From the NCBI GenBank assembly GCA_949439935.1, contig CASRZA010000001.1:1391-65390 (forward strand): DNA of 64,000 bases, given 5' to 3'. The notes under the pieces were generated by a model. It was not told the DNA's origin and ran no database searches. It saw only the letters and a list, made by a program, of their open reading frames with translations. The stretch comes from an uncultured Bacilli bacterium (GTDB lineage: Bacteria; Bacillota_I; Bacilli_A; RF39; UBA660). Positions 27,460 to 45,761 of this stretch are shown here, piece by piece (within the stretch, counting starts at the first letter, position 1; each line of letters opens with the position of its first letter). The position numbers and the translations under genes are program-made.

Positions 27460-27564
27460 TTATACTATTCACAACACTTCATATAAAGTGAAATGTTTCT
27501 GAGTTTTTGACTGCAATAGAATAAAGCACATCTAAATTCCTCGGTCATATATTATACCGAGGAT

Positions 27565-27869
27565 GTGTTTTATATGAAAAATACTTACGGTAACTTAGAC
27601 AGAGTTTTAACAGGCATTGTAATTGACCCTGGGCACGGAGGCGCGGATGGAGGGGCTTCTGGAAACGGAATTGTGGAAAAAAATATGACTTTGGATATAA
27701 GCAATTACATGTTTAACAGATTTAAAGAGTTGGGTGTTCCCGTAGCAATGACGCGAACTGGAGATGTAGAGTTGACTTCGTCGACAAGGCCTAGAAAGGT
27801 TCTAGATGCATTTGGAAGTGGAAAAGATGTGATTGTCTTATCTAATCACATAAATGCAGGAGGTGCGGA
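27565..27869 (+). pseudogene. N-acetylmuramoyl-L-alanine amidase (Amidase_3 + LysM), 5' segment
   Basis: IDPGHGGADGGA...LSNHINAGGAE, then the frame runs into inserted DNA (FSYHC*). Read across the junction, the frame continues exactly at 41320 (NAGGAEGAEVIY). Confidence 0.75.
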
Positions 27870-28226
27870 GTTCAGTTACCATTGTTAGATTAGTTGGGTA
27901 TAAGGACAAATAATTGAAATAAAATATATAAAAAGTAGAATTTTAGAAATTGTAATAACCCTAAAATTTAAATTTCGTTGAATCAATCTAAAGTGCACAA
28001 TTAAGTGCATTTTAATAAAAAAAACGAATTTCCAAAAGAAAGTGCACAATAATAAAGAAAAAAACATCTAATTTTTATGAAAAAATGATTGAATAATAAA
28101 CAAAAAGCGATAATTGTTTCACGACAAAAAGATTACAGTGAAATCAAATTATAAAAGTAAGCGCACAATAATTTAACTACTGTAAGTGAGATATATTATA
28201 CAAAAATAAAATAAATAGTCAATAAT

Positions 28227-28252
28227 GAATTTGACAGCATGAATCCAATGTT
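28227..28252. repeat. 26-bp direct repeat flanking the IS (GAATTTGACAGCATGAATCCAATGTT), copy 1
   Basis: Perfect 26/26 match to 29497-29522. Confidence 0.8.
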
Positions 28253-29496
28253 TGTTGAGTTACAATAGATGTGAGACCTGAGTATGTACAAAAAAAGATT
28301 TAAGTCGTAAAATATCGTTTAAGAAAAAACACGAAAGGACTTAAATCTATGAACAGTATAACACAAAAAGCAAATAATTCAAGATATTTACCACACGAGG
28401 TAGAAACACGTATATACGCAGTCAAATTATATAGAGGAGGTAATTCAGTTAAATATGTGTGTAGAAAATACCATATTTCTAAGGCTTCTCTTATGAGATG
28501 GAATAAAAAATATGATGGAACAAATGAATCTTTAATTGATAAATCTCATAGACCACTTACTCCTCATCCTAATGCTCATACTGATGAAGAACTAAAGTGG
28601 ATTTGGAATTATGTTAGAAGAACACCCAATATTACTCTAGGTGAATTATGGGTTAAACTTAAAAGTAATAAAGGTTACTCTAGACATCCCGGCAGCCTTT
28701 ATAGAGTTTTGAGAAGAAATGGATTTAAATATAAGATTAATATCAATCATACTTCTAAATATGTTCCTAAACCATATGATACTCCTAAGTCTTTAGGAGT
28801 AAAATGGCAGATTGATGTTAAATATGTTCCAAGAGAATGTCTAACTAATTCTATACCAAGTGATTTAAAGTTTTATCAATATACTTGCATTGATGAGGCA
28901 TCAAGAGAAAGATTTCTCTATTGGTATGACGAACAATCACCTGCCTCTACAGTAAATTTTATAAATAGATCTATCGAATACTTTGGATATAAACCTAAAA
29001 CTATTCAGACAGACAATGGACAGGAATTCACTTGGAATAGAGAAAAGATGAAAAAGATACATCCAGTCGATGAACTGTGCATTTCTCTTAATATAGAACA
29101 TTACAAAATTAAACCTAGAACGCCTAGACATAATGGCAAGGTAGAAAGAAGTCATCGAAGTGATAATGAGAGATTTTACAACAATCATTCTTTCTACTCT
29201 TTAGAAGACTTACAAAAACAAGGTGAGGTCTACCTCAAAAGATCTAATAATATCCCTATGCAAGTTTTAAAATATAAAACACCTTTAGAACAAAGAATGC
29301 TTTTATCTTTTGAAAGTTAATAATTATAATCCAAAATAAAAAGTTAGATCAAGGTAAGATAAACTTGGCTTCGCCAAACCTTGACTAACTTTCCATTTTG
29401 AATTCTCCTATGTCTAACTTCAAAAGAAAAAAAACGATATTTTGACCTACATCATTTTCTTGTAAAAGTTGGTCTCACATCATTTACATTTCTACA
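28253..29496 (+). mobile_element. insertion sequence (~1.24 kb), IS481/IS1202-like DDE (rve) transposase
   Basis: Imperfect terminal inverted repeats begin TGT and include GATGTGAGACC ... AAAATATCGTTT blocks at both ends. It holds a single transposase ORF and is flanked by perfect 26-bp direct repeats. Confidence 0.6.
28349..29320 (+). CDS. DDE (rve) transposase with N-terminal HTH
   Basis: HTH-like N-terminus. Integrase-core motifs WQIDVKYV, TDNGQEF and PRTPRHNGKVERSHR (D-D-E with the GK-ER signature). Confidence 0.7.
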   Translation: MNSITQKANNSRYLPHEVETRIYAVKLYRGGNSVKYVCRKYHISKASLMRWNKKYDGTNESLIDKSHRPLTPHPNAHTDEELKWIWNYVRRTPNITLGELWVKLKSNKGYSRHPGSLYRVLRRNGFKYKININHTSKYVPKPYDTPKSLGVKWQIDVKYVPRECLTNSIPSDLKFYQYTCIDEASRERFLYWYDEQSPASTVNFINRSIEYFGYKPKTIQTDNGQEFTWNREKMKKIHPVDELCISLNIEHYKIKPRTPRHNGKVERSHRSDNERFYNNHSFYSLEDLQKQGEVYLKRSNNIPMQVLKYKTPLEQRMLLSFES

Positions 29497-29522
29497 GAAT
29501 TTGACAGCATGAATCCAATGTT
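29497..29522. repeat. 26-bp direct repeat flanking the IS, copy 2
   Basis: Identical to 28227-28252. Confidence 0.8.
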
Positions 29523-29588
29523 GTGATGATAAAGGCTTGCCAACAGGCTAAAAAAAGCCTATTGGCAGTTAAGCCTATCACAACATTG
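29516..29588. repeat. long imperfect palindrome (~30-bp arms) overlapping the direct repeat
   Basis: CAATGTTGTGATGATAAAGGCTTGCCAACAGGC ... GCCTATTGGCAGTTAAGCCTATCACAACATTG. The arms are near reverse complements. Confidence 0.55.
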
Positions 29589-29756
29589 CCTCCGTAAAAT
29601 TCAAAATACAATTTATATAGTTTAGTGCACAACTTCTGTGCACTTCATTTTTTAAAATACAAAAATTTAAATTTTAAATATAAATAAATTGTAAATACTT
29701 AAAAATGTCGAAAAATATGTTATAATAATAGTTAAAAATAGCAGTATCTTTTTAAG

Positions 29757-30584
29757 ATGGATTCTGCTTATTTTTTGAAGTATGGAGTTGACAATATGAA
29801 GTACAAATTATTAGATCTAGAATTTGGGGTTGAAGCTTGTTTAGTATATATAGATGAATATACAGATGAACTGAAAAAATTAATTGATGATAATTTTTTA
29901 GAGATTATTAAAGGTAAAATGATAGCCGAAAGGACTTCTGATAATTGTGTAACTGATACTTTAAAAGATGCAGCAAAATATATTCTTAAGAAAAATAGAA
30001 CTTCATCTGCTAAGGTTGGAATTATTGGAGAATTTTTGTTTCACTGCTTTATGCGATTAAGTGAAATTTCTTCTAGATTTTTATCTTGTTGTCCAACAAT
30101 AGGTTATAGTGATACATATCAGGGATTTTTTAAAGGATTTGATGGTTGTTATTATTATCAAGATGAAATTTGGATAACTGAAATAAAATCAAAAGAAAGA
30201 AGTATAGATTTAGATAAAGATAATAAAGAAAAATTAACTTTCGCAGCAAATCAGATAGAACAGGAAGTTAACGATGAAGATATAAATAGATGGGAAAAAA
30301 CAAAAGGATATGTATTTAGTCAATTGACAAATGAAGAGGTGGATGAAAAAAATATATATAAGTTACTAACTAAAAATAGTAAGAATAATTATAATAAAAT
30401 TTTAGGTACAATGTTAATATACGATAGTAAAGAATTTGACGTTAATTATATAAAAGGGTATTTAGATAAATTGAAAGATAAAAATGTTGTTAATCAAAAG
30501 TTATTTATTATGTGTATAAGGAATTATGATTATGACACTTTATATAATTATATTTTAATGAAGTATGGTGATTCTTACGAATGA
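29757..30584 (+). CDS. HamA-like putative PD-(D/E)xK nuclease (Hachiman-like effector)
   Basis: 275-aa protein overlapping the start of the SF2 helicase gene. Candidate D...ExK motif (YYYQDEIWITEIKSK). Assignment is by architecture, not by an alignment I could run. Confidence 0.4.
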   Translation: MDSAYFLKYGVDNMKYKLLDLEFGVEACLVYIDEYTDELKKLIDDNFLEIIKGKMIAERTSDNCVTDTLKDAAKYILKKNRTSSAKVGIIGEFLFHCFMRLSEISSRFLSCCPTIGYSDTYQGFFKGFDGCYYYQDEIWITEIKSKERSIDLDKDNKEKLTFAANQIEQEVNDEDINRWEKTKGYVFSQLTNEEVDEKNIYKLLTKNSKNNYNKILGTMLIYDSKEFDVNYIKGYLDKLKDKNVVNQKLFIMCIRNYDYDTLYNYILMKYGDSYE

Positions 30585-33015
30585 TAATATGTCTTTAAAT
30601 ATACAATTTGTAAAAGATTATATTGAGTTCTTAAAAGGTAATATTTTTAAAATTAATGGTTTATTAAATTATTCATTTTATTTATTGATAAAGAAAAAAG
30701 ATGAGTTGAGTTTAAACTTTGCCTATAGCATCATAATAAATTATACATTAAAATTTAAAGATTACAAACCTTTAATAGAATTTTCAATTATATTCGGATA
30801 TTCTCCAATATTAAATATAATATATAATAGAATTGGGATTGTAACTTCTAAAGAAATAGAAAATTTTATTGCAAATTATTATATAGAAGACAATAAATAT
30901 AACGATAAGATACTTACTTCAGGTCAAAAAGTAATGTATAAAATGATTGAATCCAAAACGGATTATTCTATTATTGCACCAACATCATTTGGGAAGACAG
31001 ATTTAATGTTAGAAAGTGCTCTTAAATCAATTGGTGACTGTATAATAATAGTTCCACTCATTGCTTTGTTGGGCCAAATTAAATTAGATTTATATCTTTT
31101 AGCTAAAAAAGAAAATTGCAAAATAAAATTAATAACGCATCATGAAATAAAAAGAAGTAATAATTATAAAAATATTTATATATTAACGCAGGAACGATGC
31201 TTTGAATTAATTAAAAGAAATAAGTTAGAAAATATTACAGATCTTTTTATAGATGAATCTCATAAATTATTGAATAGTAATGAACGCAGTTATAAATTAT
31301 CTCAAATAATTCTTCTTTTAAAAAAGAGATTTAATTGTTGTATCAAATATTATTCACCTGTCTTATATGAACCTAAATCAATTAGAATTAAAGGAGTTCA
31401 TAATAAATCATTAGAAATGGTGAATGGAATAAGAGATATGAAATGTTATCATTATTATTTTTATCATAATAACCATAAAGAAATATATATTCCTAATACA
31501 CTTAGAATGACAGAAGCATATATTTTAGATGATAAGTATTCAAGTTTTGACGAATACATATTAAAAAATTGTAAAAATAAAAATATAGTTTTTCTAAATT
31601 CTCCTAAGGATGTAGAAAAAACAGCTATTAATTTTGCAAGAAATATAAAAAATGATTTAGATATTGAATGCGATGATTTAATAGAATTTATTGGTGAAGA
31701 ATATTATATAATAGATATTATAAAAAAAGGAGTTATTTATATTCATGGGGAAATGCAAGATATAATCAAGTCATATCTATTGGATATTTATAGAAAAAAC
31801 AGAAATATAAAATACTTATTTACGAATTCAAGTATATTAGAAGGAGTAAATACTCCAAGCGACGCATTATTCATATATGACTACAGTATTGGTAGAGAAA
31901 TAATGAGGCCACAGGATTTTATTAATATACGTGGAAGAATAAATAGAATAAATGAAATAGTAAAATCCGGAGATTTAAGTAGGCTTATATGTGAAACGCA
32001 TTTTAATTGTCAGAGTGATTATAAGAAACAAAAAATAAGAAAAGAAATTATTGACCCGTGTTATGGAATTTATCATAAAGATGAAATAGATAATGAATAT
32101 TTGATCGATTATTCAAAAGAAAATAAAAGCTCAGAATTTATTTCTAGTTTAGAACAAATTAAATTGATTGATGATGAAATTGATATTAAATCTATTTTTA
32201 ATGAAGATATTAAAAATAATAAAAGTAGTATAATAAATAAATGTTTATTAAATAATATTAAATTAAATGATAATCAAGAAAAATTGTTGGAAGAAAGGAT
32301 ATCAAATTATTATGGCAAAAAGATTAATAATATAAATGAATTGTTATCTGCAATTAATACTATTTTTAAATTAAATGAATCAGATGAAATAGCAATCTCC
32401 CGTTTATCAAATGATTCTGCAAGAAATTTTTACTCTCTGTTAATACAATGGATTATTGAAGGGAAAACAATAAAAGAAAAAGCTTTAAGATTAACAAATT
32501 ATTATAGAAAAAAACCTTTTGGAGAATTAATATATGTTGGAAAAAGAGGAGATATATGTGCTGAGTTAATTAATAATAAACTGATTATCTCTCACTCGGG
32601 ATTTAGTTATTTGAAAGTTGATAAAAAAGGAAATCCAATTAAACTAAAAAAATTATGGACAATTAATAATGCAGATTTAAAGAAATTATATAATATATGC
32701 GTTATTAAATTAAAGGTAGAAGAAGATTTCATTTCGTTCAAATTAATACCATATATAGAATCTTTAGAAGATATTAATGATACAATTATTGATAAAAATC
32801 TGTATAATTTAATAAAATATAGATCTAATGATTTATTTGAAATTGAATTGATTAAGGAGGGCTTTTCTATTTATCTTGCCAGAATATTAAATAATGAAAT
32901 TTATAAAAAATATATTCATTTTTCTGATTTAGGGGTAATTATAGATTCAAAAATTCTTAATTTTTTCACTGGTAATAAAATAGTATATGAAGAATTAATA
33001 AGATATATATCATAA
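30565..33015 (+). CDS. SF2 DExH-box helicase (HamB-like)
   Basis: Motif I PTSFGKT, motif II FIDESHKLL (DESH), motif VI-like QDFINIRGRINR. ~816 aa with N- and C-terminal extensions. Confidence 0.55.
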   Translation: MVILTNDNMSLNIQFVKDYIEFLKGNIFKINGLLNYSFYLLIKKKDELSLNFAYSIIINYTLKFKDYKPLIEFSIIFGYSPILNIIYNRIGIVTSKEIENFIANYYIEDNKYNDKILTSGQKVMYKMIESKTDYSIIAPTSFGKTDLMLESALKSIGDCIIIVPLIALLGQIKLDLYLLAKKENCKIKLITHHEIKRSNNYKNIYILTQERCFELIKRNKLENITDLFIDESHKLLNSNERSYKLSQIILLLKKRFNCCIKYYSPVLYEPKSIRIKGVHNKSLEMVNGIRDMKCYHYYFYHNNHKEIYIPNTLRMTEAYILDDKYSSFDEYILKNCKNKNIVFLNSPKDVEKTAINFARNIKNDLDIECDDLIEFIGEEYYIIDIIKKGVIYIHGEMQDIIKSYLLDIYRKNRNIKYLFTNSSILEGVNTPSDALFIYDYSIGREIMRPQDFINIRGRINRINEIVKSGDLSRLICETHFNCQSDYKKQKIRKEIIDPCYGIYHKDEIDNEYLIDYSKENKSSEFISSLEQIKLIDDEIDIKSIFNEDIKNNKSSIINKCLLNNIKLNDNQEKLLEERISNYYGKKINNINELLSAINTIFKLNESDEIAISRLSNDSARNFYSLLIQWIIEGKTIKEKALRLTNYYRKKPFGELIYVGKRGDICAELINNKLIISHSGFSYLKVDKKGNPIKLKKLWTINNADLKKLYNICVIKLKVEEDFISFKLIPYIESLEDINDTIIDKNLYNLIKYRSNDLFEIELIKEGFSIYLARILNNEIYKKYIHFSDLGVIIDSKILNFFTGNKIVYEELIRYIS

Positions 33016-33065
33016 GTTATACAATTAAATACATAGCGTATTTATATATAGTTAGGAATTTAGAA

Positions 33066-33905
33066 ATGAGTGAAAAAGAATTGGATTCAAGTGTAAAGGA
33101 ATATACAGAATACAACAAATCAAACACATATATAAAACAATTACAATGGGATATGGCCATTGGCCTTCAAGAAGTTGATAATTTACATCCTTCTAAATAT
33201 TTTGAAAAACTTATAAATGATAATGTAGAAGGTAACTTAAGCATTGAAGAAGTAAAAAAAGAATTGAGAAAATACTACATTGAAAGAGAGAATAAAAATG
33301 AATTAAATCACAATGAAAAAGAATGCGACTTTGTTTCTACAAGAATAGTTGAATTATTACAGCAAGATAATTTTGAATTATCGGTCGATTACTTAAAGTA
33401 TATTCATAAATTTCTATTTCAAGACGTATACGAATTTGCTGGTGAATTTAGAAAAATAGATTTCTCTAAACACGAGAAGATATTAAATAATGATTCAGTA
33501 GCATATGGAAATTGTAGAACTTTAAAAGAATCTTTAGAATATGATTTATCTTTAGAAATTAGTAAAGACTATAATAAGATGAATCCAATCGAAGTTATTA
33601 ACAATATAACAAAGTTTTCATCTAGCATATGGCAAGTTCATCCATTCAGAGAAGGCAATACTAGAACTACTGCACTGTTTATAGAAAAATATCTAACTAG
33701 CCTCGGATATAGTGTAGATAATACCTTATTTAAAGATAAATCCGTGTATTTTAGAAATGCGTCAGTAAGAAGTAATTATTTTAATAATTATATGAATGTA
33801 AAGGAAGACTGTAGTTATTTAATTAAATTTTATGAAAATCTATTATTGGGTAAAAATAATAATTTACACTTAGAAGATTTAATTGTTAAAGAATTGTTTA
33901 ATTAA
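33066..33905 (+). CDS. Fic/DOC-family protein
   Basis: Fic core motif HPFREGNTRTTALF, a variant of HxFx(D/E)GNGRxxR. Confidence 0.65.
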   Translation: MSEKELDSSVKEYTEYNKSNTYIKQLQWDMAIGLQEVDNLHPSKYFEKLINDNVEGNLSIEEVKKELRKYYIERENKNELNHNEKECDFVSTRIVELLQQDNFELSVDYLKYIHKFLFQDVYEFAGEFRKIDFSKHEKILNNDSVAYGNCRTLKESLEYDLSLEISKDYNKMNPIEVINNITKFSSSIWQVHPFREGNTRTTALFIEKYLTSLGYSVDNTLFKDKSVYFRNASVRSNYFNNYMNVKEDCSYLIKFYENLLLGKNNNLHLEDLIVKELFN

Positions 33906-34019
33906 TTATCTCTGAAAAACTAAGTACAATTCTACAATATTTTATAAAAATAAAATATTTTCGTTACACCCCTGGACTTATCACAAATTATTTGTTATTA
34001 TATATATAGGTGATGACTT

Positions 34020-35324
34020 ATGCAAAAAAAACCACTTGCTATTGATTTATTTTGTGGAGCCGGAGGCATGAGCGAAGGACTGCTTCAAGCAGGTTTTCAC
34101 ATAATTTATTCTAATGACATTAGCAAAGATGCAATGAGAACTTACATAAATAGACATGAGCAATTGGGACTATTTCACAAAAAGAATACATTTGCAAGTT
34201 GTAAAGATATAAAAGAACTTGACGGAAAACAAATATTTAAATCAATATCTGAAATTGATGAATATAAAAATCAAGAAATAACTATTGATGCTATTTTTGG
34301 AGGTCCTCCATGTCAAGGATTTAGTCGAGCAGGCAAAAGAAATGCCAATGATCCTAGAAATCAGTTATTTAAAGAATATATTAGAATTATAAGTGAGATA
34401 AGGCCAAAATATGTTGTTATGGAAAACGTAGAAGGATTTTTAGATACTATATTTATAGGATTTATAGGATTAGATGGAATAAAATACAGTAATGAAAAGG
34501 CTCCTTTTATTTTAAAAAATGAATTTAAAAAAATTGGATATAACACTATAGAACCACAATTATTAAATGCTTCAGATTATGGTGTGCCTCAAAATAGAAA
34601 GCGAATGATTTTCATTGCCTATTTGCCATCAGTTTCAATGCCAGTATATCCATTAAAATTTAAAAGTGAAAAAATTGTACTAAAAGATGCAATTAATGAT
34701 TTAATTAATCCATCGAATAAAAGTCCATATGCTAAAGAATGTATTCAAGGCCGAACAAGAAGAATAGATGGAACTTCAGTAACATATAATAGAAGCGAAA
34801 AATTAAATAATGAAATTTCGACTCATACAGATTTAATAAATGAAAGATTTTCTTTATATAAACAGGGTGAATCTACATCGGACTTAAGAAAAAGAATTAT
34901 GCTAAATGGTGTTGACCTTTCAAAGAAAAAACACATTTTACAAGAATTAACCAAAACTTATGGAACTACAGAAGATTCAATAATAAAAAAATTTAGAAAA
35001 AAGAATCTACGTAAGGAGGATTTAGACAACTTATTAACAAAAAAAGGAATTAGAAAAAAACTCAATAATAATTTACCATCCCCTACAATGGTAACTCTTC
35101 CAGATGATTTCATTCATCCGACACAAAATAGAATATTGACTGTACGAGAAATGGCAAGAATTCAATCTTTTGATGATAGTTTTGAATTCCTAGGGAAGAG
35201 AACTACTGGAGGACCACGAAGAAAAGTTGAAGTTCCCCAGTATACTCAAGTTGGAAATGCAGTTCCTCCTTTACTCGCAAAAGCTATTGCTGAACAAATA
35301 ATTACAGCAATAAATAAATCATAA
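34020..35324 (+). CDS. DNA (cytosine-5)-methyltransferase
   Basis: Motif I DLFCGAGGMSEG, motif IV GGPPCQGFS, motif VI ENV, motif VIII QNRKRMIFIAY, motif X GNAVPP. Confidence 0.9.
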   Translation: MQKKPLAIDLFCGAGGMSEGLLQAGFHIIYSNDISKDAMRTYINRHEQLGLFHKKNTFASCKDIKELDGKQIFKSISEIDEYKNQEITIDAIFGGPPCQGFSRAGKRNANDPRNQLFKEYIRIISEIRPKYVVMENVEGFLDTIFIGFIGLDGIKYSNEKAPFILKNEFKKIGYNTIEPQLLNASDYGVPQNRKRMIFIAYLPSVSMPVYPLKFKSEKIVLKDAINDLINPSNKSPYAKECIQGRTRRIDGTSVTYNRSEKLNNEISTHTDLINERFSLYKQGESTSDLRKRIMLNGVDLSKKKHILQELTKTYGTTEDSIIKKFRKKNLRKEDLDNLLTKKGIRKKLNNNLPSPTMVTLPDDFIHPTQNRILTVREMARIQSFDDSFEFLGKRTTGGPRRKVEVPQYTQVGNAVPPLLAKAIAEQIITAINKS

Positions 35325-35346
35325 AAAAGGGCAATGCCCCTTTTTT
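35322..35346. terminator. bidirectional Rho-independent terminator (AAAAAAGGGCAATGCCCCTTTTTT)
   Basis: GC stem flanked by an A-run and a T-run, sitting between convergent genes. Confidence 0.65.
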
Positions 35347-36223
35347 ATATAGAAAAATATGAGTACTTTTCATCTAAACATTTTAATTCTTCGCTTAAAA
35401 CTTTTCTAACATTAAAATTTTGATTGCTAAAAAATACACGTGCGGGTAATTCACCAACTGACTGAGCAACCCCTGATTTTGTTTCGTAGCCCCAATAAAC
35501 TCCACCAGATAAATTAGATACTCTTTTTACAGCAACCGAATTCAGATTAAGTTTATCAAGTTTTACAGTAGGGACTGTTACAAATGAATATGAAAATTTT
35601 TTACAATCCTTAATAGAAAAATTATTTCTTCCAATGGTAATATTACTATTTTCAAAATGCTTTACTTTATAAATCATATCCCAAAGCATAGGAATTTGAG
35701 CATTATCATTCCAGTTAGTTTTGCATTGAATAATGTTAATTTCTATGTTATCAAAGTTATAGTTAATAAAATCATTTACTATACCTATTATATTTTCACC
35801 ATTGCCAAAGTAATGATCATCATAATCACCATAAAATGTGATTGCAATAATATCAGCTTCTGTATTTGATATAAAGCTTCCATAGTTCACGGTAATAGCA
35901 TCTCTGATTATTGATGGCAAAATTCCGTTAACAGGTCTCACTATTACTGTTCTACTACCAATAGAGCATAAGTTTAAATACCAACATATTAAATTTTCCC
36001 AAATTTTTCCACCGGATGAGACTGTCGATTGATTTCTTTCGTTTCCGGTTGATTTAAATATCTCTCCAAGTTGTGATCCAAGACTAGTTAATTCGTCTAT
36101 AGTTCTATTTTTAAATTTAGAATTAATTTGTTTTCTCCATTCTGGCCATACATTTGCAAAAGAATTAACAGAAAACAGATTATTAACAGCTAACTTCCGA
36201 TAATTCTCAATAAAGTCATTCAT
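35345..36223 (-). CDS. putative type II restriction endonuclease, cognate to the C5-MTase
   Basis: 292-aa gene convergent with the MTase and sharing its terminator. Possible PD-(D/E)xK elements (EADIIAI...IEINIIQCK). Assignment is by context. Confidence 0.4.
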   Translation of the reverse strand: MNDFIENYRKLAVNNLFSVNSFANVWPEWRKQINSKFKNRTIDELTSLGSQLGEIFKSTGNERNQSTVSSGGKIWENLICWYLNLCSIGSRTVIVRPVNGILPSIIRDAITVNYGSFISNTEADIIAITFYGDYDDHYFGNGENIIGIVNDFINYNFDNIEINIIQCKTNWNDNAQIPMLWDMIYKVKHFENSNITIGRNNFSIKDCKKFSYSFVTVPTVKLDKLNLNSVAVKRVSNLSGGVYWGYETKSGVAQSVGELPARVFFSNQNFNVRKVLSEELKCLDEKYSYFSI

Positions 36224-37005: not shown

Positions 37006-37037
37006 CACTAACCAATCAACTGGTTAGTGATTTTTTG
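37006..37037 (+). terminator. Rho-independent terminator in a non-coding stretch (CACTAACCA-loop-TGGTTAGTG + T6)
   Basis: Perfect 9-bp stem followed by a T-run, inside a ~1.1-kb ORF-free region. Confidence 0.5.
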
Positions 37038-37329
37038 TATTCGAGAATCTATCAAAAAAAGTACTCATTATAACAATCAAATTAATATTTTTGGTACCAA
37101 TTTATCCAAAAATCACTTTAAAAAAGTGTATACAATTGTATAACACATCCCATAGTACAGGACATCTAAAGTATACGTATGTATAACGATTAGTGAAAGT
37201 GTAAACACTACCAATGATAAAAATTCCTTTTAAAATAAGGAATCACTCACCACTGGTGAGTTGATTGCAAACAGGTTTATCCTGCTTTTATTTTGGAATA
37301 TAGAAAATTATGAATTTGATTGTTAATAT

Positions 37330-37536
37330 GTGGTACCTAAAATTACAGAAAGGAAGGTGTTTAAAATGAAGTCGAATAGAACTATACAGAAGAAGTTTAG
37401 AATAGATAGAAATACTGAAAAAGCGCTCAAGAAAATACTATCTAATAATAAAATAACATTTCAATACGTTATGGAATCTTTGCTAAGAGAATATATCTAT
37501 AAAAATATCAACGTCATCACAGATACTGATAAATGA
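37330..37536 (+). CDS. small basic protein, possible DNA-binding regulator
   Basis: 68 aa, Lys/Arg-rich. No secure family. Confidence 0.3.
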   Translation: MVPKITERKVFKMKSNRTIQKKFRIDRNTEKALKKILSNNKITFQYVMESLLREYIYKNINVITDTDK

Positions 37537-37582
37537 TGAAATCTTATGGCTGACATATTTTTGTAAGTGCGTTACAATTTAG

Positions 37583-37768
37583 ATGAAAGGCGGTAAAATG
37601 AAAAAAGTAAAAGTGAATTACATAATAACAGAAGAATTTAAAACAACTAAACCAAATCTATCAGAGAAGGAATTAAAAGAGATATTTAACAAGAAATACT
37701 TTGAGTACATTAAGAGACAAGAGACGAGACTTTTCAACAAGGATAACAAAATAAAACAAACACGATAG
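37583..37768 (+). CDS. small hypothetical protein
   Basis: 61-aa ORF with an RBS, followed by a strong terminator. Confidence 0.3.
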   Translation: MKGGKMKKVKVNYIITEEFKTTKPNLSEKELKEIFNKKYFEYIKRQETRLFNKDNKIKQTR

Positions 37769-37798
37769 CTATCAGTTTAAACATACTGATAGTTTTTT
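37769..37798 (+). terminator. Rho-independent terminator (CTATCAGT-loop-ACTGATAG + T6)
   Basis: Perfect 8-bp stem followed by a T-run. Confidence 0.6.
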
Positions 37799-38022
37799 AT
37801 TGAAATTAAAGGGGGTTAAAAATGAAAAATAATAAAAATAATGACAATAGCATAACATTTAATGGTGTTATTATGAACAATAAAATTACATTTAAAGATT
37901 TAATTTTAGAATATCTTATTAAGGAGATAAAAAATGAAGAAAATGGGCTGTAATTTATTTGAATATGCGTTATTATTGAATAGTCTTAATACCCAATTAA
38001 GTAAGAAAAGAAGGAGGTACGA

Positions 38023-39678
38023 ATGTATAATACTTACTTAACTGGTGTAGATTTCAATGTTGGAATCTACATAAGATTATCTCAAGAAGATAAGGACAAA
38101 AAATATGAATCTGATAGTGAAAGTGTAATCAATCAAAAAGAACTATTGAGAAATTATGTTAAAAATAATAACTTTAATCTAGTGAAAGAATATGTCGATG
38201 ATGGATACTCAGGTACTAATTTCGATAGACCAGGATTTCAAAATATGTTAGAAGATATAAATAACAAGAAAATAAACTGTGTTATTGTAAAAGACTTATC
38301 GAGATTAGGTAGAGATCATGTTATGACCGGTTATTATATTGAAACATTCTTTCCAGAAAACAATGTAAGATTTGTTTCTATATTAGAATCCTATGATAGT
38401 TTCAAAGATCAAGCTAGTAATGACTCATCGACATTTATAATCGCATGCAACGATTACTATAGTAAACAAAATTCTGTCAAGATTAGAAATGTTCTAAATG
38501 AGAAACGAAAGAATGGAAAGTTCGTTGGAAGTTTACCTTGTTTTGGTTATATGAGAGATTCAAACGATAAAGGACATTTAATTCCCAACCCAGAAACAGC
38601 TCCTATTGTCAAAAACATTTTTAAATGGAGAGCAGAAGGCATAGGGCCAACTGAAATAGCAAATAGGCTTAATAAAGAAAAAGTTCCTACTCCTAGTGGT
38701 TATAAGAAGACAAACTATTCATCTCGACTAATTGATAGAGACAGTTGGAACATTTCAACTGTCAAAAAAATTCTATGTAACAGAATTTATACTGGTGATA
38801 TGGTTCAACATACTCAGACGAAAGTAAGTTATAAATCGAAAAAAAAGATAGCCTTAGATGAAAAACTGTGGATAATAGTAGAAAACACCCATGAAGCATT
38901 AGTAGATAAAGATACTTTCGATTATGTTAATACTTTGAGAAAGAGAAATACTCGTAATTATGAAGTTAAGACAGGAAGAGAGAAAAGATTATTAGAAGGT
39001 AAATTATTTTGTAAAGAATGTCAAAATAGATTAACTGTTCTCTATAGAAAAAAAAGCAATTATTGGTCAGTTAATTGTAATAGATATTCAAGAGACCCTG
39101 TAAGAGGAAGATGCTACTCACATTTTTATCCTTATAATTATTTAGAAGAACAAATACTAGATCAAATAAATAATTGTGTATCTAAATTAATTAATGAATT
39201 AGATATAAACGAATTAAACAATCAAGTTGTTAAAAACGTCCATAAAGAAACTACTGATATAGATAAAGTAATTAAAGAATTGCAGATTGAAAAGGATAAA
39301 ATAACTAATAAATTAGCTATTTTATATAATGATCGATGTGATGGAGTAATTTCTGCAGACGCTTATAAGATTTTAGCAAATGAATCAGAAACTAGATTAA
39401 AACAAATTAATGAAAGTATTGAAAATGAACAAACTAAAAAGTATAAGATAAAAAATAAGAGTAGTATTTTACCAAATTACACAAAAAAAATTAAAGAGCT
39501 ACTAGATTTAAACGAACCCAAAAAAGAACTTATTGATATATTAATAGATAGAGTTATCATCAATAAAGATCGATATATTACTATAAAATATAAGTATGAT
39601 ATAGCACCCGAAACTACTTTTCAATATGAAAATAGAAATTTAGTAAGAAATCCTTTTGGTAGAAACGGCAAAAAATAA
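38023..39678 (+). CDS. large serine recombinase (resolvase/invertase N-domain + recombinase + zinc-ribbon)
   Basis: The N-terminus (VGIYIRLSQEDKDKK...VKDLSRLGRD) is the serine-recombinase catalytic domain. The C-terminus is Cys-rich (CKECQN...CNRYSRDPVRGRC). 551 aa in total. Confidence 0.9.
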   Translation: MYNTYLTGVDFNVGIYIRLSQEDKDKKYESDSESVINQKELLRNYVKNNNFNLVKEYVDDGYSGTNFDRPGFQNMLEDINNKKINCVIVKDLSRLGRDHVMTGYYIETFFPENNVRFVSILESYDSFKDQASNDSSTFIIACNDYYSKQNSVKIRNVLNEKRKNGKFVGSLPCFGYMRDSNDKGHLIPNPETAPIVKNIFKWRAEGIGPTEIANRLNKEKVPTPSGYKKTNYSSRLIDRDSWNISTVKKILCNRIYTGDMVQHTQTKVSYKSKKKIALDEKLWIIVENTHEALVDKDTFDYVNTLRKRNTRNYEVKTGREKRLLEGKLFCKECQNRLTVLYRKKSNYWSVNCNRYSRDPVRGRCYSHFYPYNYLEEQILDQINNCVSKLINELDINELNNQVVKNVHKETTDIDKVIKELQIEKDKITNKLAILYNDRCDGVISADAYKILANESETRLKQINESIENEQTKKYKIKNKSSILPNYTKKIKELLDLNEPKKELIDILIDRVIINKDRYITIKYKYDIAPETTFQYENRNLVRNPFGRNGKK

Positions 39679-39770
39679 AAAAGCAAAGTTCAAAAACTTC
39701 GATTTTCCAATTAGGTTTTATGGATTTTAAGCGATAGCAATGATATAATATATTTATCGGAAGTGATAGT

Positions 39771-40744
39771 ATGTTAAATCTAAGTATAACGGCATGTAGT
39801 TTTCATTTAAAGAAATCAAATTCTATAGGAAATAAAAGTATCTATGAACTAAATAAACCAATTAAATTGTTCGAAAATTCTGCTAACGAAAGACAAATCA
39901 ATAACAGCTTTGAATTATTTAAACCATGCTTTGAAAGATATAATGCTCCTACAAACGATGAAGACACTAATAAAGTATTTAAATGTACCTATAATAATGA
40001 AAAAATTGAAACTGAACAGTTTACGATATATCCAGTAGTAATAAATTCGGGAATGTATGGTAGTGCTTCAGAAATAATGAACGTTAAAACAAAAAAGATA
40101 ACGCATAAAAAAAGCATAGATGAAGTTGATTTTAGAAAGTTCTATTTATTTGTTGTTATTCCAAAAGATTCTAATAAAAAAGTTCAAAAAGGCATGCTAA
40201 TATTCCAAAATATTGGTCCCTATGGAGTTAAAACAATTATAACACAAAAGCTACAAGAGTTTTTTTCAAATAACTATAGAATTACGTTGAATTGTTATAC
40301 AATTGCGCCATCACTATTTATAAAAAAAGTTTTAAAAAAGAATCCATAAAAAAAATATCCGTAATTAAAAACTACAAATCCTCTGATGGAGCTGATAATT
40401 TTAGCTTAGGATATGGAAAAGAAATTAAGACATATGTTAATCTAAATTTTGACGAATCAAAGTGGGAAAAAATTAAAAATAGTATGTTATATGTTTCAGG
40501 AGCAAAAAATCGCTTATTTGAATTCATAGATGGCACTAAATACGATAGTGTTAAAGCAACAGTTATAATAGGTGACAGAGAAAGAATTATTTCTCTTAAC
40601 AACTTAGAAAATTTAAGTATCATTGAATCATTACCTGACGAAATTAAAGATAACAGCGGTAATGCAGATAAGGATAAATTAATTGAACATATAAAAGCAG
40701 TTATAAAAGAGTATCTAGAAGAGATGGTTTTAGAAATAGAGTAG
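39771..40744 (+). pseudogene. hypothetical gene (~335 aa) split by a frameshift in an A7 tract (~40322-40328)
   Basis: ORFs 39771..40349 and 40292..40744 overlap in frames that differ by one. A single A indel would fuse them. Confidence 0.4.
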
Positions 40745-40754
40745 GAGGTATTTA

Positions 40755-41303
40755 ATGAACATAAGTTTTGAAAATATATTAAATGTTATTTGCCTTATTG
40801 GACTAGTAATTTTAATTTTAAGTTTTACCTTAAAAATCAATAACTTTTTCGATATTAGATCAATCCTTCATAATCATTTCAAAGTATTTCAAAATAGCTA
40901 TTTACAATTAATTAGTGTTTATATAGTTCCGATTTTTTTCGCAATATGGATTACACAACAACAGCAAGTAACAAAAGATATTTTAGACGAAATAAATTTA
41001 GTAATAACAATACTTACCTCAATGTTCTTTGCCTTCATTGGCATTATAGGATCTTTGAATATGGATAAAAAAGATGGAAATTATAAAAGAGTTGCCGAAG
41101 AAACCTTTAACTCCACTCTATTCGAAATTATGTGCTGTTTAATCTTGTTGCTCATTTCTTTCTTAATAATATTCGTTAACGATTATGACAACATATGTTT
41201 TATAAAAATGATTAGCATACCAATCTATTACTTTTTTATTATTATTATTCTAAACATATTTTTAATTCTAAAAAGAATACAGGCTATATTTAAAAATTCA
41301 TAA
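40755..41303 (+). CDS. small multi-pass membrane protein
   Basis: 182 aa with four hydrophobic segments, at the right end of E1. Confidence 0.45.
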   Translation: MNISFENILNVICLIGLVILILSFTLKINNFFDIRSILHNHFKVFQNSYLQLISVYIVPIFFAIWITQQQQVTKDILDEINLVITILTSMFFAFIGIIGSLNMDKKDGNYKRVAEETFNSTLFEIMCCLILLLISFLIIFVNDYDNICFIKMISIPIYYFFIIIILNIFLILKRIQAIFKNS

Positions 41304-41315
41304 TGGTAACTAAAC

Positions 41316-41705
41316 CCACGAGGTGCGGAAGGTGCAGAAGTAATCTACGCTCTCCGCAACAACGACGTCCTGTCAGAAAAAATTCTTAACAGTATAGCCC
41401 AAGAAGGACAAAAAATCAGAAAGAATTATCAAAGGCGGCTACCAAGCAATCCCTCAAAAGACTATTACTATATCCTTAGGGAAACACCCAATACAGAAGC
41501 AGTTATAGTAGAATACGGCTTCCTCGATAATACAACAGATGCTGCAAAGCTTAAAGCAAACTATAAAAACTACGCCGAAGCTGTAGTAAGAGCTGTCATG
41601 GACTACAAAGGATTGAAATACATTCCGCCAAAAGGAAGTGGCGAATATTATACAGTTAAAGCAGGTGATACAGTTTTTATGGGGAATAATGAGTATTTAC
41701 TATAG
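41316..41705 (+). pseudogene. amidase gene, middle segment (Amidase_3 C-terminal half and start of the first LysM)
   Basis: PRGAEGAEVIYALRNN...AVIVEYGFLDNTTDAAKL...YYTVKAGDT. The frame then runs into the second insertion (VFMGNNEYLL*). Confidence 0.75.
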
Positions 41706-41774
41706 ATAGCTATATTTGGGTTAGTCTAAAATATTGCATGAAAACTAGATTTAGTATATAATAATTATCTAGAA

Positions 41775-42434
41775 ATGAGGCAAGTTATGAGAAATTATCA
41801 AAAATATATATTTGATTTAGATTATACATTATTAATTCCAGATTGGTCTAAAGAAGATGATTACTTTAGAAAAAATATACCTTTAGATGAACAAGAAGAT
41901 TTTTTTAAACAAAAACAAGCCATATTAAATAAATATGAATTAGAATTTCCAAAGTATGATTTTAAAACATTAAGTGATTTTTTTAAAAATTATGGTTTTA
42001 ATTTAAGTGAAGAGGTTATAAATGGCTGGATGGTCTATAATGGAGAAACTATAAAAGATGAAGTTGTTGATGGAGTTATAGACTTATTTAATTATTTAAA
42101 AGAGAATAATAAAGATATAGTAATTCTTACTAGTTGGTTTAGTGGAACTCAAATACCTAGGTTAAAAAGAACTGGTTTATATGATTATGTGGATCAAATT
42201 GTTGCAGGTGAAGATGCAATGAAACCAGATTTAGAATCATTTGAACTTGCAATTGGGGATACAAATAAAGAAGATTGTATTATGATAGGTGATAGTATTA
42301 AGAGTGATAAAATTGGTGCTCAAAATGCAGGAATAGATAGTTATATAGTAGATAATGAACACAGTATAAGAGATTTATTACAAATAATTATAGATAATAA
42401 GGAAAGTGAGGATTATTTTGTAAAGAAAAAATAA
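41775..42434 (+). CDS. HAD-superfamily hydrolase
   Basis: Motif I IFDLDYTLL (DxD) and motif IV GDSIKSD. 219 aa. Confidence 0.65.
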   Translation: MRQVMRNYQKYIFDLDYTLLIPDWSKEDDYFRKNIPLDEQEDFFKQKQAILNKYELEFPKYDFKTLSDFFKNYGFNLSEEVINGWMVYNGETIKDEVVDGVIDLFNYLKENNKDIVILTSWFSGTQIPRLKRTGLYDYVDQIVAGEDAMKPDLESFELAIGDTNKEDCIMIGDSIKSDKIGAQNAGIDSYIVDNEHSIRDLLQIIIDNKESEDYFVKKK

Positions 42435-42766
42435 TTAGTTTCAAAAAACTTTTAAAAATAGATTATTAAAAATTAATCATCCTATAAAATCTAACGGAAA
42501 TTAGATATTAGGATGTTTTTTAGTGCTTAAAATTATTGTTATTATTAGGATTATCCCATATATCATCCTACAAAGTAGGATGAATTTCGTAAGTACGAAA
42601 TAAGAATGGTGCATATGTGAATCCTTATTTTATAAAGGAAAGTAAGTGTCTTTGCACCATCTTCTTATCCTGCTATTTCATAATTTGATTAATCATCAAT
42701 GCATTTAGGATGATAGACAAAACTTTCTATACTATATGACTTGACTCTTCTTTTTTGTGGAGGTAA

Positions 42767-42892
42767 CATGCATCATGCAAAGGAGATGATGCGTATGAGA
42801 AGATTTAATTTATATTTAACAGAGGAGTTATTTGAACGGATTAAATTACTTGCAAAATTTTATAATATTTCCATAACTAAATTAATGGTATA
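42767..42892 (+). CDS. small RHH-like putative DNA-binding protein (41 aa)
   Basis: Strong RBS GGAGG 5 nt upstream of the ATG. Sequence RRFNLYLTEELFERIKLLAKFYNISITKLM is consistent with a ribbon-helix-helix fold. Too short for the supplied ORF track. Confidence 0.35.
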
Positions 42893-43092
42893 ACTACTAG
42901 AAATCGGATATATAGACATGATAGATACAAGAAAGAATAAATAAATTTATAAAAATGAAAAGGTTAGGTGATGAATATGAGTATAATGTTTTTTAAATTA
43001 ATGGAGGTTTATGATAGTAAGTAATATTGTTAGGTATGTTACAGGCATAATAAATAATATTACTAAAACAAAAATTAAAGCCATAGAATTTA

Positions 43093-43290
43093 TTGGAGGT
43101 ATTAAACTCTATGGTTAAATACAAAGTTAATTTAAAGTTTAAAGAAAGTGGAAAATCTTTAAATGAAACAATAACTGAAGTATTAAAAATAGAACTAAAT
43201 AAAAAAATAAATGAGACTTGTAATATTTTTAAAAAGGAGCTAACATTAGAGTCTACTCATTATTCCCAAAGTGAAGGGAGTAGTAATTAA
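43093..43290 (+). CDS. small protein translationally coupled to the recombinase (TAATG overlap)
   Basis: 65-aa ORF with an RBS. Its stop overlaps the recombinase start. It could be a recombination directionality factor or a regulator. Confidence 0.35.
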   Translation: MEVLNSMVKYKVNLKFKESGKSLNETITEVLKIELNKKINETCNIFKKELTLESTHYSQSEGSSN

Positions 43291-44855
43291 TGCTTGAGAA
43301 TAGTAGTTTTAAAGTTGGAATATATATAAGATTATCTAGAGATGATGGAAACATTGAATCTGATAGTATTGTTAGTCAAAGAAGTTTACTTAATCAATAT
43401 ATCAAAGAGAATAATTATAATTTAATAGATGAGTATGTTGATGATGGTTTTACTGGAACAAATTTTGAAAGACCATCATTTAAGAGAATGATTAAAGATA
43501 TTGAATCTGGAAGAATTAATATGATTATTACTAAAGATATGTCTAGATTAGGTAGGGATTATATAGGTACTGGAGAACTAATAGAAAAGTATTTTCCAAA
43601 TAATAATGTAAGATATATTGCTATCAATGATGGTATTGATACATTTATAGATAACACTAATAATGATATAGCACCATTTAAAGCAATAATGAATGATATG
43701 TATGCTAAAGATATTTCTAAAAAAGTTAAAACAAGTTTGCATTCTAGAATGAAAGAAGGATTATATGTATCTGGTAGATGCCCTTTTGGATATATGAAAG
43801 ATCCTGTTAATAGAAATCATTTAATAATAAATGAAGAACAAGCAGAGACAGTTAGATTAATATTTGATTTAGCATTAAAAGGTAATACTTACCACTATAT
43901 AGCACAGGAATTAACTAAAAGAAAAATTAAAACACCAGCATCTTATTACAATTATGTTTGGAATACTAAGTGCATAAATACCAACTGTATATCACAAGAA
44001 TATGGTATATGGGTAGATACCACAATAAAATCAATTTTAACTAATAAAATATATGTGGGAGATACAGTACAGGGTAAGACTAAAAAGATTAATTATAAAC
44101 TTAAAAAGACAGTTAAAAATAATCCAAATGATTATATAGTTGTTGAAAATACACATGAAGCAATAATAAATAGGGATACATTTAATTATGTACAAACTTT
44201 ATTACCTAAAAACGTTAAAAGACCAGAGAAGAAAAGATTTTACCTACTAGATGGACTTTTATATTGTGGAGATTGCAAACATCGTATAACAATTAGGTAT
44301 CAAACTAAAACTGGAAGAAGTTATACAACCTGTGATTATTATAGAACTTACTCAAAATATCATGTTTGCACAACTCATACAAACAATTATGAAACACTAG
44401 AAAAAGTTATTTTAGATAATATTAGAGATGTATGTAAAAGTTATTTAGATAAGAATAAAATAAAAAATTCCATAGGTGATATAAAGTTTGAAGACAACAC
44501 TTTAAAGATTAAAAAGCAAATTGAAAGTCTAGAACTTATTAATAATAAATTAACAGAGAATTTAGATAAAACTTATATGAATATGTTAAAAGGTATTATT
44601 GATGAACAACAATACATAAGGGTTAGTGAAAATCTAAAAAAAGAAATAGAAAATAATAAATCAAGTATTGATAATCTTAAAAATGAAAATAATGAATCTA
44701 ATAAAATAGACAAAAAACAAATAGAAAAATATATAAATGAATTTTTATCACTTGAAAATCCAACTAGGGAATTAATAATAAATTTAGTTGAAAAAATCTA
44801 TATCTATCAAGATAAGCAGATAGATATTATATTTACATTTAAAAATGTTACATAA
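43290..44855 (+). CDS. large serine recombinase
   Basis: VGIYIRLSRDDGNIESDS...TKDMSRLGRD catalytic domain. C-terminal Cys cluster (CGDCKHR...CDYYRTYSKYHVC). 521 aa in total. Confidence 0.9.
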   Translation: MLENSSFKVGIYIRLSRDDGNIESDSIVSQRSLLNQYIKENNYNLIDEYVDDGFTGTNFERPSFKRMIKDIESGRINMIITKDMSRLGRDYIGTGELIEKYFPNNNVRYIAINDGIDTFIDNTNNDIAPFKAIMNDMYAKDISKKVKTSLHSRMKEGLYVSGRCPFGYMKDPVNRNHLIINEEQAETVRLIFDLALKGNTYHYIAQELTKRKIKTPASYYNYVWNTKCINTNCISQEYGIWVDTTIKSILTNKIYVGDTVQGKTKKINYKLKKTVKNNPNDYIVVENTHEAIINRDTFNYVQTLLPKNVKRPEKKRFYLLDGLLYCGDCKHRITIRYQTKTGRSYTTCDYYRTYSKYHVCTTHTNNYETLEKVILDNIRDVCKSYLDKNKIKNSIGDIKFEDNTLKIKKQIESLELINNKLTENLDKTYMNMLKGIIDEQQYIRVSENLKKEIENNKSSIDNLKNENNESNKIDKKQIEKYINEFLSLENPTRELIINLVEKIYIYQDKQIDIIFTFKNVT

Positions 44856-44863
44856 AAAATGTA

Positions 44864-45487
44864 TCTGGTGATACTCTCTGGACGATCGCCAAAAACCACG
44901 GATTATCAGTTGACGAACTTAAAGCTCTTAACAATCTTACAAACAACGCCTTAACTATAGGTCAAACTTTAAAAGTTTCTTCTACACCATCGACGACTAC
45001 CCCGACTGTTCCAGAAGGAAACTATTACACAGTACAAAAAGGTGACTCACTGTACTCAATTGCGAGCAAATATAATACTACAGTAGATGAACTTAAAAAA
45101 CTTAACAAATTAACTACTAATAATCTTTCTATAGGTCAAAAACTTCTAATAAGTTCAACTTCAGCGCCTATACAACCACCGATTTCTTCAGGTACAACTT
45201 ATACGATAAAGCCAGGAGACACTCTTTATAATATCGCAAATAAATATGGTGTCACTGTCGATTCTATAAAACAAGCTAACGATCTTTCAAACAATACACT
45301 GACGATAGGCAAGACACTTATTATCCCAACGAATTCTCAACCTACTTCTAAGACCTACACAGTCCAAAAAGGAGACACCTTATATGGAATCGCAAGTAAG
45401 AATAGTACAACTGTGGAAAACATAAAAGTTTTAAACAATCTAATTTCAAATAACCTATCGATAGGTCAAAAACTTCTCATACCATAA
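44864..45487 (+). pseudogene. amidase gene, 3' segment: rest of the first LysM plus three more LysM repeats
   Basis: SGDTLWTIAKNHGLSVDELKALNNL... followed by three further YTV(Q/K)KGD(S/T)LY-type LysM repeats. It is in frame with the middle segment once E2 is removed. Confidence 0.75.
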
Positions 45488-45761
45488 GCAGATTAATCTC
45501 TGCTTTTTTAAATATTATTTTATGAAACAACTCATTTTACTATAATAAGCATACCACAACAAAAATCGTATTTTTTGCCAAATTGTGATTCAAAAATTCA
45601 ATTATTGTTTAAAAATGAAAAAAGTTTCGATAAAATGCAAGAAAAAATGAGAAAAATGAAAGTTTTCCGGAATAATAATAGTAGAGGGGCATAACGATCC
45701 TTCTATCAAAAAAAGAGATAAAAGTGGGTAAAAAAATAAAAATGAAAGGAGGACAAAATTT

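Follow-up and report, generated by a model that had tools for sequence, protein, structure and literature searches.

The 64,000-nucleotide stretch of DNA analysed here (contig CASRZA010000001.1 of an uncultured Bacilli bacterium; hereafter the window) carries an amidase gene, encoding an Amidase_3 domain followed by four LysM repeats, that lies on the + strand in three pieces. The pieces are separated by two elements, each of which encodes its own large serine recombinase (LSR). As judged from the sequence, this structural reading, with one gene in three pieces, two LSR elements and precise excision restoring the gene, is correct. All positions and statements refer to the window unless a locus of another genome (L001 and the like) is named. 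We consider it fairly probable that these are intervening elements of the skin, SPβ and gin type, residing in a gene of the sporulating mother cell. By analogy with those systems developmental excision is plausible; its timing and its directionality factor we infer from them.

Reconstruction of the split amidase gene

The open reading frame (ORF) starting with the ATG at 27574 reads ...SNHINAGGAE up to position 27869, then enters unrelated sequence and meets a stop codon at 27886-27888. The same frame picks up at 41330 (GAEVIYALRNN), breaks a second time after ...YYTVKAGDT at 41671 and picks up again at 44875 (LWTIAKNHG). The original prediction, made from the sequence of this stretch, located both breaks correctly but had the frame resume at 41320 and 44864. 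Deletion of the intervals it proposed (27870-41319 and 41672-44866) causes a frameshift, since both copies of each core repeat stay behind. The frame is restored only when one core copy leaves with each insert, so that the correct deletions are 27870-41329 (13,460 bp) and 41672-44874 (3,203 bp), which yield a single open frame of 416 codons from ATG 27574, rather than the approximately 440 residues expected earlier.

A Pfam search with the rebuilt protein recovers, as had been proposed, one complete Amidase_3 domain (positions 1-172 of 174) and four LysM repeats, an architecture common to thousands of proteins. Full-length relatives of the in silico product do exist: uninterrupted homologues of 398-460 aa, up to 76% identical, align gap-free across both junctions and read NHINAGG[A/G]EGAEVIYALR at junction 1 and YYTVKAGDTLWTIAKN at junction 2. 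In the homologue alignment, His21, Glu35 and His92 are nearly invariant and Glu160 is invariant; from general knowledge of the Amidase_3 family we take the former three to be the zinc ligands and the latter to be the catalytic glutamate. Junction 1 (codon 99) parts His21, Glu35 and His92 from Glu160, and junction 2 (codon 213) falls in the GDT motif of the first LysM repeat. Because the presumed zinc ligands and catalytic glutamate reside on different pieces, no single piece should be active, and an active amidase is predicted to be beyond the reach of the integrated state. The Amidase_3 domain starts at residue 15, so the protein lacks a signal peptide.

Two independent serine-recombinase elements had been postulated, and Pfam supports this for both proteins: LSR1 (551 aa) and LSR2 (521 aa), which share 37% identity, each contain the Resolvase, Recombinase and Zn_ribbon_recom domains, and the motifs YIRLSQED and YIRLSRDD are found near the N-termini of the translations. 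Both inserts are bounded by short shared cores with inverted repeats, as originally described. The reconstructed attP dyads are centred on the GG within the core, with arms AATGGTAACTnAAC in element 1 and CATAAAAAnTGTATC in element 2; both dyads match at 15 of 22 positions, a value attained in 11 (element 1) and 93 (element 2) of 20,000 shuffles. The flanks have a GC content of 33-34% and the amidase pieces one of 35-42%; it falls to 24-26% in the inserts, with the step exactly at the junctions. We conclude from these features that each element was inserted by its own LSR via attP × attB recombination at the GG crossover. Coordinates are collected in Table 1.

Table 1. Features of the interrupted amidase locus, in order along the window; predicted recombination junctions stand at the end.
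Feature	Position	Strand	Remarks
σK-type promoter motif AC-N16-CATATATTA	27528-27554	+	46 nt 5′ of amidase ATG; overlaps hairpin CCTCGGT...ACCGAGG
Amidase piece A	27574-27869	+	codons 1-98 plus 2 nt; holds H21, E35, H92; no signal peptide
attL1 core GAGGTGCGGA	27860-27869		crossover inferred at GG of GA-GG-TG
Element 1	27870-41329	+	13,460 bp; 25.9% GC; non-phage; defence cargo
IS481-family transposase (element 1)	28349-29320	+	NCBIfam transpos_IS481 191 bits, below the 224-bit cut-off; Pfam rve
Likely Hachiman-type pair (element 1)	29757-33015	+	275-aa ORF (candidate HamA), then 816-aa HamB DEAD-box helicase
Fic/DOC protein (element 1)	33066-33905	+	matches PADLOC candidate defence family PDC-S72; Pfam
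Type II restriction–modification (R-M) module (element 1)	34020-36223		C5 cytosine methyltransferase and convergent putative endonuclease
C5 cytosine methyltransferase	34020-35324	+	Pfam DNA_methylase E = 3e-65; PADLOC MTase_II
Putative endonuclease	35345-36223	-	292-aa ORF convergent to the methyltransferase; no family match
43-aa ORF	37822-37953	+	just 5′ of LSR1; candidate directionality factor or regulator
LSR1	38023-39678	+	site-1 clade; 551 aa; Pfam
Three ORFs between LSR1 and attR1	39771-41303	+	192, 150 and 182 aa; the last a predicted membrane protein
attR1 core GAGGTGCGGA	41320-41329		attP arm AATGGTAACTAAAC just before
Amidase piece B	41330-41671	+	codons 99-212; holds invariant E160 and start of LysM repeat 1
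attL2 core GGTGATAC	41664-41671		crossover at GG
Element 2	41672-44874	+	3,203 bp; 24.2% GC
HAD-family hydrolase (element 2 cargo)	41775-42434	+	nearest YjjG-type nucleotidases, below family cut-off
Conserved non-coding block (element 2)	42550-42774	+	several predicted hairpins
Small regulator gene (element 2)	42795-42944	+	ribbon-helix-helix-like appearance; in-frame TAA at codon 33
59-aa ORF	43111-43290	+	overlaps LSR2 start codon; candidate directionality factor
LSR2	43290-44855	+	site-2 clade; 521 aa; Pfam
attR2 core GGTGATAC	44867-44874		attP arm CATAAAAAATGTATC just before
Amidase piece C	44875-45487	+	codons 213-416 plus stop; remainder of LysM repeat 1, LysM repeats 2-4
Terminator-like hairpin, then T-run	45486-45505	+	directly 3′ of amidase stop codon
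Predicted attB1 junction			AAATGCAGGAGGTGCGGAAGGTGCAGAAGT
Predicted attB2 junction			CAGTTAAAGCAGGTGATACTCTCTGGACGA
Predicted attP1 junction			contains AACCCACGAGGTGCGGAGTTCAGTTACC
Predicted attP2 junction			contains AATGTATCTGGTGATACAGTTTTTATGG

Occupancy of the insertion sites in relatives

At least five other species also carry insertions at these two sites, and each site has an LSR clade of its own. Recombinases found at site 1 (six loci) are 49-84% identical to LSR1, and LSR2 is 87-92% identical to the site-2 copies in L020 and L025; from one clade to the other, identity is 34-39%, and the identity matrix resolves them together with a third LSR. L020, an Erysipelotrichaceae metagenome-assembled genome, has both sites filled: its site-1 LSR is 49% identical to LSR1, its site-2 LSR 87% identical to LSR2, and its attP2 arms are nearly identical to those of the window. 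The contigs L001 and L016 start at site 1. In further host species, LSR2 elements with DpnII-type R-M cargo are located at site 2, and the 90%-identity cluster of LSR2 comprises 920 members, many of them from human-gut metagenomes.

In eight loci of a sister species from the human gut, P0137, an exact LSR2 relative present in 128 blocks of the collection, is always located at site 2; site 1 is empty in one of these loci (L025) and filled in the other seven, in all cases by LSRs of the site-1 clade. The site-1 cargo in these loci varies widely, including a type I R-M system, an N6/N4 methyltransferase, a D12 methyltransferase with HNH, and a Bro-N protein with a tubulin-like protein. Four states of the amidase gene are found in the species, namely intact, element-2-only, element-1-only and doubly interrupted; P0152 is the allele with no element and P0163 (183 member sequences) the element-1-only allele. 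The uninterrupted allele anticipated for a relative is real and matches what excision was predicted to leave: empty-site DNA that occurs naturally (L033) is identical to the junction deduced from attL and attR, the crossover lying at GG (L033 and L025 compared with L025-L032). In L025, attL2 and attR2 have little beyond this GG in common.

Additional junctions occur within the same gene. L014, whose amidase is about 72% identical to that of the window, carries a 5.65-kb element at site 1 with an LSR 55% identical to LSR1. The third LSR, a protein of 632 aa with a DUF4368 tail, is encoded at L014 2190-4100 and is preceded by an FtsK/SpoIIIE-like gene; its element ends within the DPGHGG codons of the amidase, where a third junction lies. 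The L014 amidase thus seems to be interrupted at two sites by two LSR clades, one of these sites being unused in the window, with the 5′ fragment beyond the DNA examined. L011 contains a 74%-identical, apparently intact homologue, which ends (~4940-5020) with ...YTVKSGD followed directly by RVFMGNNEY, that is, with an element-2-type attL in the fourth LysM repeat. The read-through at this junction is the same as at attL2 in the window, so that the attB sites open to element-2-type elements are not confined to a single LysM repeat.

In other samples from the window's own species, element 1 keeps its ends and its LSR1 but differs in cargo: an AlwI-type endonuclease and a D12 methyltransferase adjoin LSR1 in L003 (1-4700), and an HTH_38 protein is encoded near attL1 in L007 (10430-12540). 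Exact look-up of the rebuilt and half-rebuilt proteins among 15 billion proteins returned no empty-site allele of this species, which appears, as far as sampled, to be always occupied.

Predicted mother-cell expression and rival explanations

In C. difficile and B. subtilis, a σK promoter is marked by AC at -35 together with a -10 element of the CATA type, a σE promoter by ATA at -35 (PMC3789822). A regular expression for the former (AC-N15-17-CATAnnnTA) finds a motif at -42 to -47 from the start codon in 9 of 10 distinct upstream regions of amidase homologues (carriers: the window, L011, L012, L013, L015, L025/L033 and three intact homologues added as a prospective test); the only region devoid of it belongs to the most distant homologue, L018. 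All three homologues of the prospective test have the motif, at -42 to -44. Its chance occurrence at that position, estimated from shuffled upstream sequence, is ~1e-3 per sequence, and only six σK-type motifs exist on both strands of the whole window. Expression of the amidase in the mother cell is therefore predicted.

CwlC of B. subtilis is a σK-dependent mother-cell-lysis amidase with C-terminal SPOR repeats. The amidase described here resembles it in the N-terminal Amidase_3 domain, the absence of a signal peptide, the C-terminal peptidoglycan-binding repeats and the predicted σK-type promoter; the repeats are LysM instead of SPOR. We predict that it is a functional analogue of CwlC, defined by these features, and neither a member of that group nor an established orthologue. 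A prophage endolysin was considered and rejected, given the chromosomal context (HtrA ... amidase ... GDSL lipase in a relative), the conserved σK-type promoter and the gene's own terminator.

By its gene markers, the host is an endospore former. The GerQ homologue reported by the original prediction is confirmed (Spore_GerQ at 52599-52988), while the CwlD homologue corresponds to a 219-aa Amidase_3 ORF at 14962-15621, a CwlD candidate by size only. Genes for CotZ and a SleB-type protein (Hydrolase_2) are located near the orthologue.

A perfect 7-bp hairpin (CCTCGGT-N9-ACCGAGG, 27541-27563) overlaps the σK-type -10 element and the GAGGA ribosome-binding site of the amidase. L011 has a related sequence, and the hairpin may have a regulatory role.

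By analogy with skin, SPβ, gin and yin, we hypothesize that during sporulation each recombinase would excise its own element from the mother-cell chromosome. Each LSR probably requires a small directionality factor, the candidates being the ORFs of 43 and 59 aa. Rebuilding the 416-codon gene would take both excisions, and the amidase would thus be made only in the terminal mother cell, with the forespore chromosome retaining both elements. The amidase gene may in this way offer a safe harbour, and several landing sites, to mobile elements bearing defence systems.

The resemblance to skin-type elements, proposed from the outset, has gained indirect support. The σK-type motif, the missing signal peptide, the spore markers, the recurrent clade-specific sites and the SPβ-like layout all speak for it; the timing of excision is unobserved and no strict σE or σK motif precedes the recombinases.

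Several further observations weigh against developmental excision. The sporulation role of the target is itself a prediction from its promoter. Ten site-1 LSR genes, one each from the window, L003, L014 and L020 and the others from six loci of the human-gut species, have no match 5′ of them to a strict regular expression for σE and σK promoters, and a scan across both elements gives none before either LSR or its small ORF; the conserved TAATATT-N17-CATA sequence 5′ of the 59-aa ORF has a spacer 1-3 nt beyond the σE consensus. The closest solved catalytic domain for both recombinases (101-102 bits) is that of TnpX of Tn4451, which excises without a developmental signal. Searches of JGI metagenome contigs for exact 30-mers spanning attB1 or attB2 gave 0 matches each; rare mother-cell DNA is undetectable in this way.

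The evolutionary record of the recombinases points in the same direction. LSR2 is 87-92% identical across hosts whose amidases are only ~50-67% identical, and LSR1 is 84% identical to the copy in a host with a ~57% identical amidase and only 55% identical to that in a closer host. Co-divergence of the LSRs with the host amidases, considered as a test of long vertical residence, was rejected, as the identities do not track each other. The elements are thus horizontally mobile, and recently so, and the purifying selection seen in the amidase cannot be assigned to the interrupted state and may predate insertion. Being polymorphic within a species, the elements are not required for sporulation. 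Mobility and polymorphism together argue against a domesticated, skin-like fixture.

The most serious alternative, which we regard as less likely, is plain insertional inactivation. Mobile LSR cassettes would use a conserved attB in a dispensable amidase and excise sporadically for transfer, like Tn4451 or integrative mobilisable elements, the carriers being amidase-null and having no developmental programme. Horizontal movement of the LSRs, all four occupancy states within one species, the TnpX-like catalytic domain and the lack of a sporulation-type promoter before the LSR genes fit this explanation. The element-2-type insertion in the fourth LysM repeat of L011 suggests opportunistic use of a repeated motif, and B. 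subtilis has several redundant mother-cell-lysis amidases, so that loss of one could be tolerable. It accounts less well for at least three LSR clades independently targeting one gene at at least three sites, and for the conserved σK-type promoter of that gene. No interrupted allele shows decay: the pieces are open in every one examined, with ratios of nonsynonymous to synonymous substitution (dN/dS) of 0.05-0.17 against other interrupted alleles, computed with synonymous sites saturated. Moreover, no relaxase or Mob family was detected by Pfam in any ORF of either element, and no sample searched contains an empty allele of the window's species.

A more ambitious version of developmental excision, which we regard as improbable, sees the amidase gene as a platform dedicated to the docking of defence cassettes: in Erysipelotrichales-like spore formers of the gut, a guild of such LSR-borne cassettes, belonging to three LSR clades, would use at least three sites in it. 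The elements would exploit mother-cell excision, which would rebuild the lysin and release the circles. If this were true, excised circles would be freed as DNA just as the spores are shed, coupling element spread, evidently frequent, to sporulation, and spore release would hinge on two or three independent recombination events.

It is very unlikely that the pieces are remnants of a decaying pseudogene, left by successive insertions, free of selection and never rejoined. The premature stop in the small regulator gene of element 2 and the IS481-family element that landed in element 1 would fit such decay, but the three pieces are open and join in frame, the family-conserved residues are intact, both LSR genes are full length with all domains, the promoter motif and terminator are kept, and dN/dS is at most 0.17. 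A chimeric contig joining unrelated sequences, conceivable for a window that appears to be metagenome-derived, can be practically dismissed: assemblies made independently from a number of samples (JGI, ENA, Logan) share these junctions, piece A is 100% identical in six other assemblies and ends at junction 1 in each of them, and dozens of contigs of other species, up to 0.5 Mb long, have the same architecture.

Cargo, known counterparts and implications

Element 1 carries predicted anti-phage genes. The HamB helicase is recognised by PADLOC (E = 3e-46) and by Pfam (DEAD), and the adjacent 275-aa candidate HamA matches no family in Pfam, NCBIfam or PADLOC. The three ORFs 3′ of LSR1 remain adjacent to it in element variants. 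The first two of them (192 and 150 aa, 39771-40744, + strand), also kept in the variants, overlap and might be one frameshifted gene; their only family match is marginal (oligonucleotide cyclase, E = 7e-4). Terminator-like sites on the + strand inside element 1 led us to reject read-through from a host promoter as the driver of LSR expression.

In element 2, a non-coding block of ~200 nt is nearly identical in three host species (window 42550-42774; L025 7264-7488; L020 9437-9661). The three sequences show little covariation, and a promoter-like site, TTGACT-N17-TAACAT, follows. Rfam assigns no family to the block, giving only sub-threshold noise; in the whole window it detects one tRNA, outside both elements. 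The small regulator gene, interrupted by a stop codon at codon 33 in the window, has GAA at this codon in L025, where it is an intact 49-aa ORF, and is absent from the L020 copy.

The 59-aa ORF is retained in every element-2 copy seen and has no homologue in the phage collection. The position of the 43-aa ORF and its motif ...TFKDLILxYLIxEI... are kept across site-1 elements. The two ORFs share a similar helical motif (ITFKDLILEYLIKEIK and LNETITEVLKIELNKK), and equivalents are located 5′ of every examined LSR of both clades, hinting that they may form a common partner family, possibly of directionality factors.

A phage origin of the elements was rejected: Pfam scans detect no phage structural genes in either of them, and the best LSRs of the phage collection are at most 38% identical to LSR1 and LSR2. 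The recombinases reach no named NCBIfam equivalog, scoring 78-82 bits with the XisF model (cut-off 375) and 110-116 bits with CcrB (cut-off 900); this library yielded no model for SpoIVCA, and the recombinases were not compared directly with SpoIVCA itself.

The surroundings of the amidase also hold defence genes. A complete Wadjet-type system (DUF2397, DUF2398, an SbcC-like ATPase and JetD; PADLOC JetD2, E = 6e-99) lies directly 5′ of it, at 19519-27459, and is missing from the HtrA-to-amidase interval of the relatives L025 and L040, so that the neighbourhood gathers such genes outside the elements as well. Further upstream, at 14962-18146, the CwlD-sized Amidase_3 ORF is accompanied by an Abi_2 abortive-infection protein and an HtrA-type protease, and the Abi_2-HtrA pair is syntenic with L025. 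A second σK-type motif in an intergenic region (12019-12046) lies before a 194-aa ORF that matches no family and is followed by an Imm5-like immunity protein (to 13304). Just 3′ of the amidase, at 46488-47867, short ORFs matching Phage_min_cap2 (as annotated in the source record of this contig) are found together with a tRNA gene (47794-47867); this region may be a decayed prophage remnant at a tRNA.

Sporulation genes reported to be interrupted include sigK, spsM, spoVFB, spoVR, gerE and yabG (PMC10747680, PMC6957869). In the literature searched, we found no report of an amidase among them, nor of a spore-former gene that needs two or more independent LSR excisions. The closest parallel for a non-phage element with R-M cargo inside a (here predicted) mother-cell gene is gin of B. 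cereus ATCC 10987, a non-prophage element in the gerE coding sequence with genes for an R-M system and serine recombinases, the excision of which rebuilds the gene (Abe et al. 2017, PMC5595907). Unlike the present case, gin is a single element with three recombinase genes in a Bacillus gerE; here two elements with one LSR each share one amidase gene of an Erysipelotrichales-like gut bacterium, the cargo varies between strains and species, and excision is predicted.

SPβ, which interrupts spsM (PMC4191935, PMC5499854), is organised as an attL-sprB-sprA-attR unit (PMC6957869). The elements described here follow the order attL, cargo, small ORF, LSR, attR, in which the small ORFs hold the position of sprB relative to sprA, and they share with SPβ a late mother-cell target (here predicted) and polymorphism among strains. 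However, SPβ is an active prophage of 134 kb, whereas these elements measure 3-13 kb, contain no phage genes and have LSRs and a 59-aa ORF as distant from phage proteins as described above.

With skin in sigK (SpoIVCA in B. subtilis, CD1231/CD1234 in C. difficile; PMC5025042), the elements have in common LSR-mediated and potentially precise excision, rebuilding a gene that would be used only in the mother cell. They are not inserted in sigK: the target is an effector enzyme, Amidase_3 plus LysM, in place of the regulator σK, and two elements reside in one gene.

Multiple interruption of one gene has precedents in cyanobacterial heterocysts, where ten genes carry more than one element and nifD up to four (nifD, fdxN/XisF, hupL; PMC4874684, PMC11249958). 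There too, several independent elements lie in a gene needed only in a terminally differentiated cell, serine recombinases are common and the recombinase lineage is tied to the site. The phylum and the developmental programme are different, as is the recombinase, given the low XisF scores.

Tn4451 and Tn4453, from low-GC Firmicutes, are likewise only a few kb long, and the one LSR that moves them has a catalytic domain resembling those found here. The crossover of Tn4451 is GA, whereas GG is used here; the present elements lack a detectable Mob (TnpZ) or relaxase, and each occupies one highly specific site in one gene, in contrast to the many target sites of Tn4451.

The theme of interrupted developmental genes is itself known; what is new is that the interrupted target is an amidase, that one gene holds several sites, that copies differ in their defence cargo and that the elements are widespread in gut metagenomes. 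The two LSR/att pairs, with distinct sites and a predicted attB, attP and crossover dinucleotide, are potential genome-engineering tools, for which the small ORFs would be candidate directionality factors. Rebuilding of a single gene by two LSR excisions, possibly three in one relative, would reproduce in gut bacteria the pattern documented in heterocysts. The anti-phage cargo differs between copies (HamB helicase, Fic, several R-M types) and, together with the 920-member LSR2 cluster, suggests that this locus links sporulation, the spread of defence systems and horizontal transfer in gut Firmicutes.

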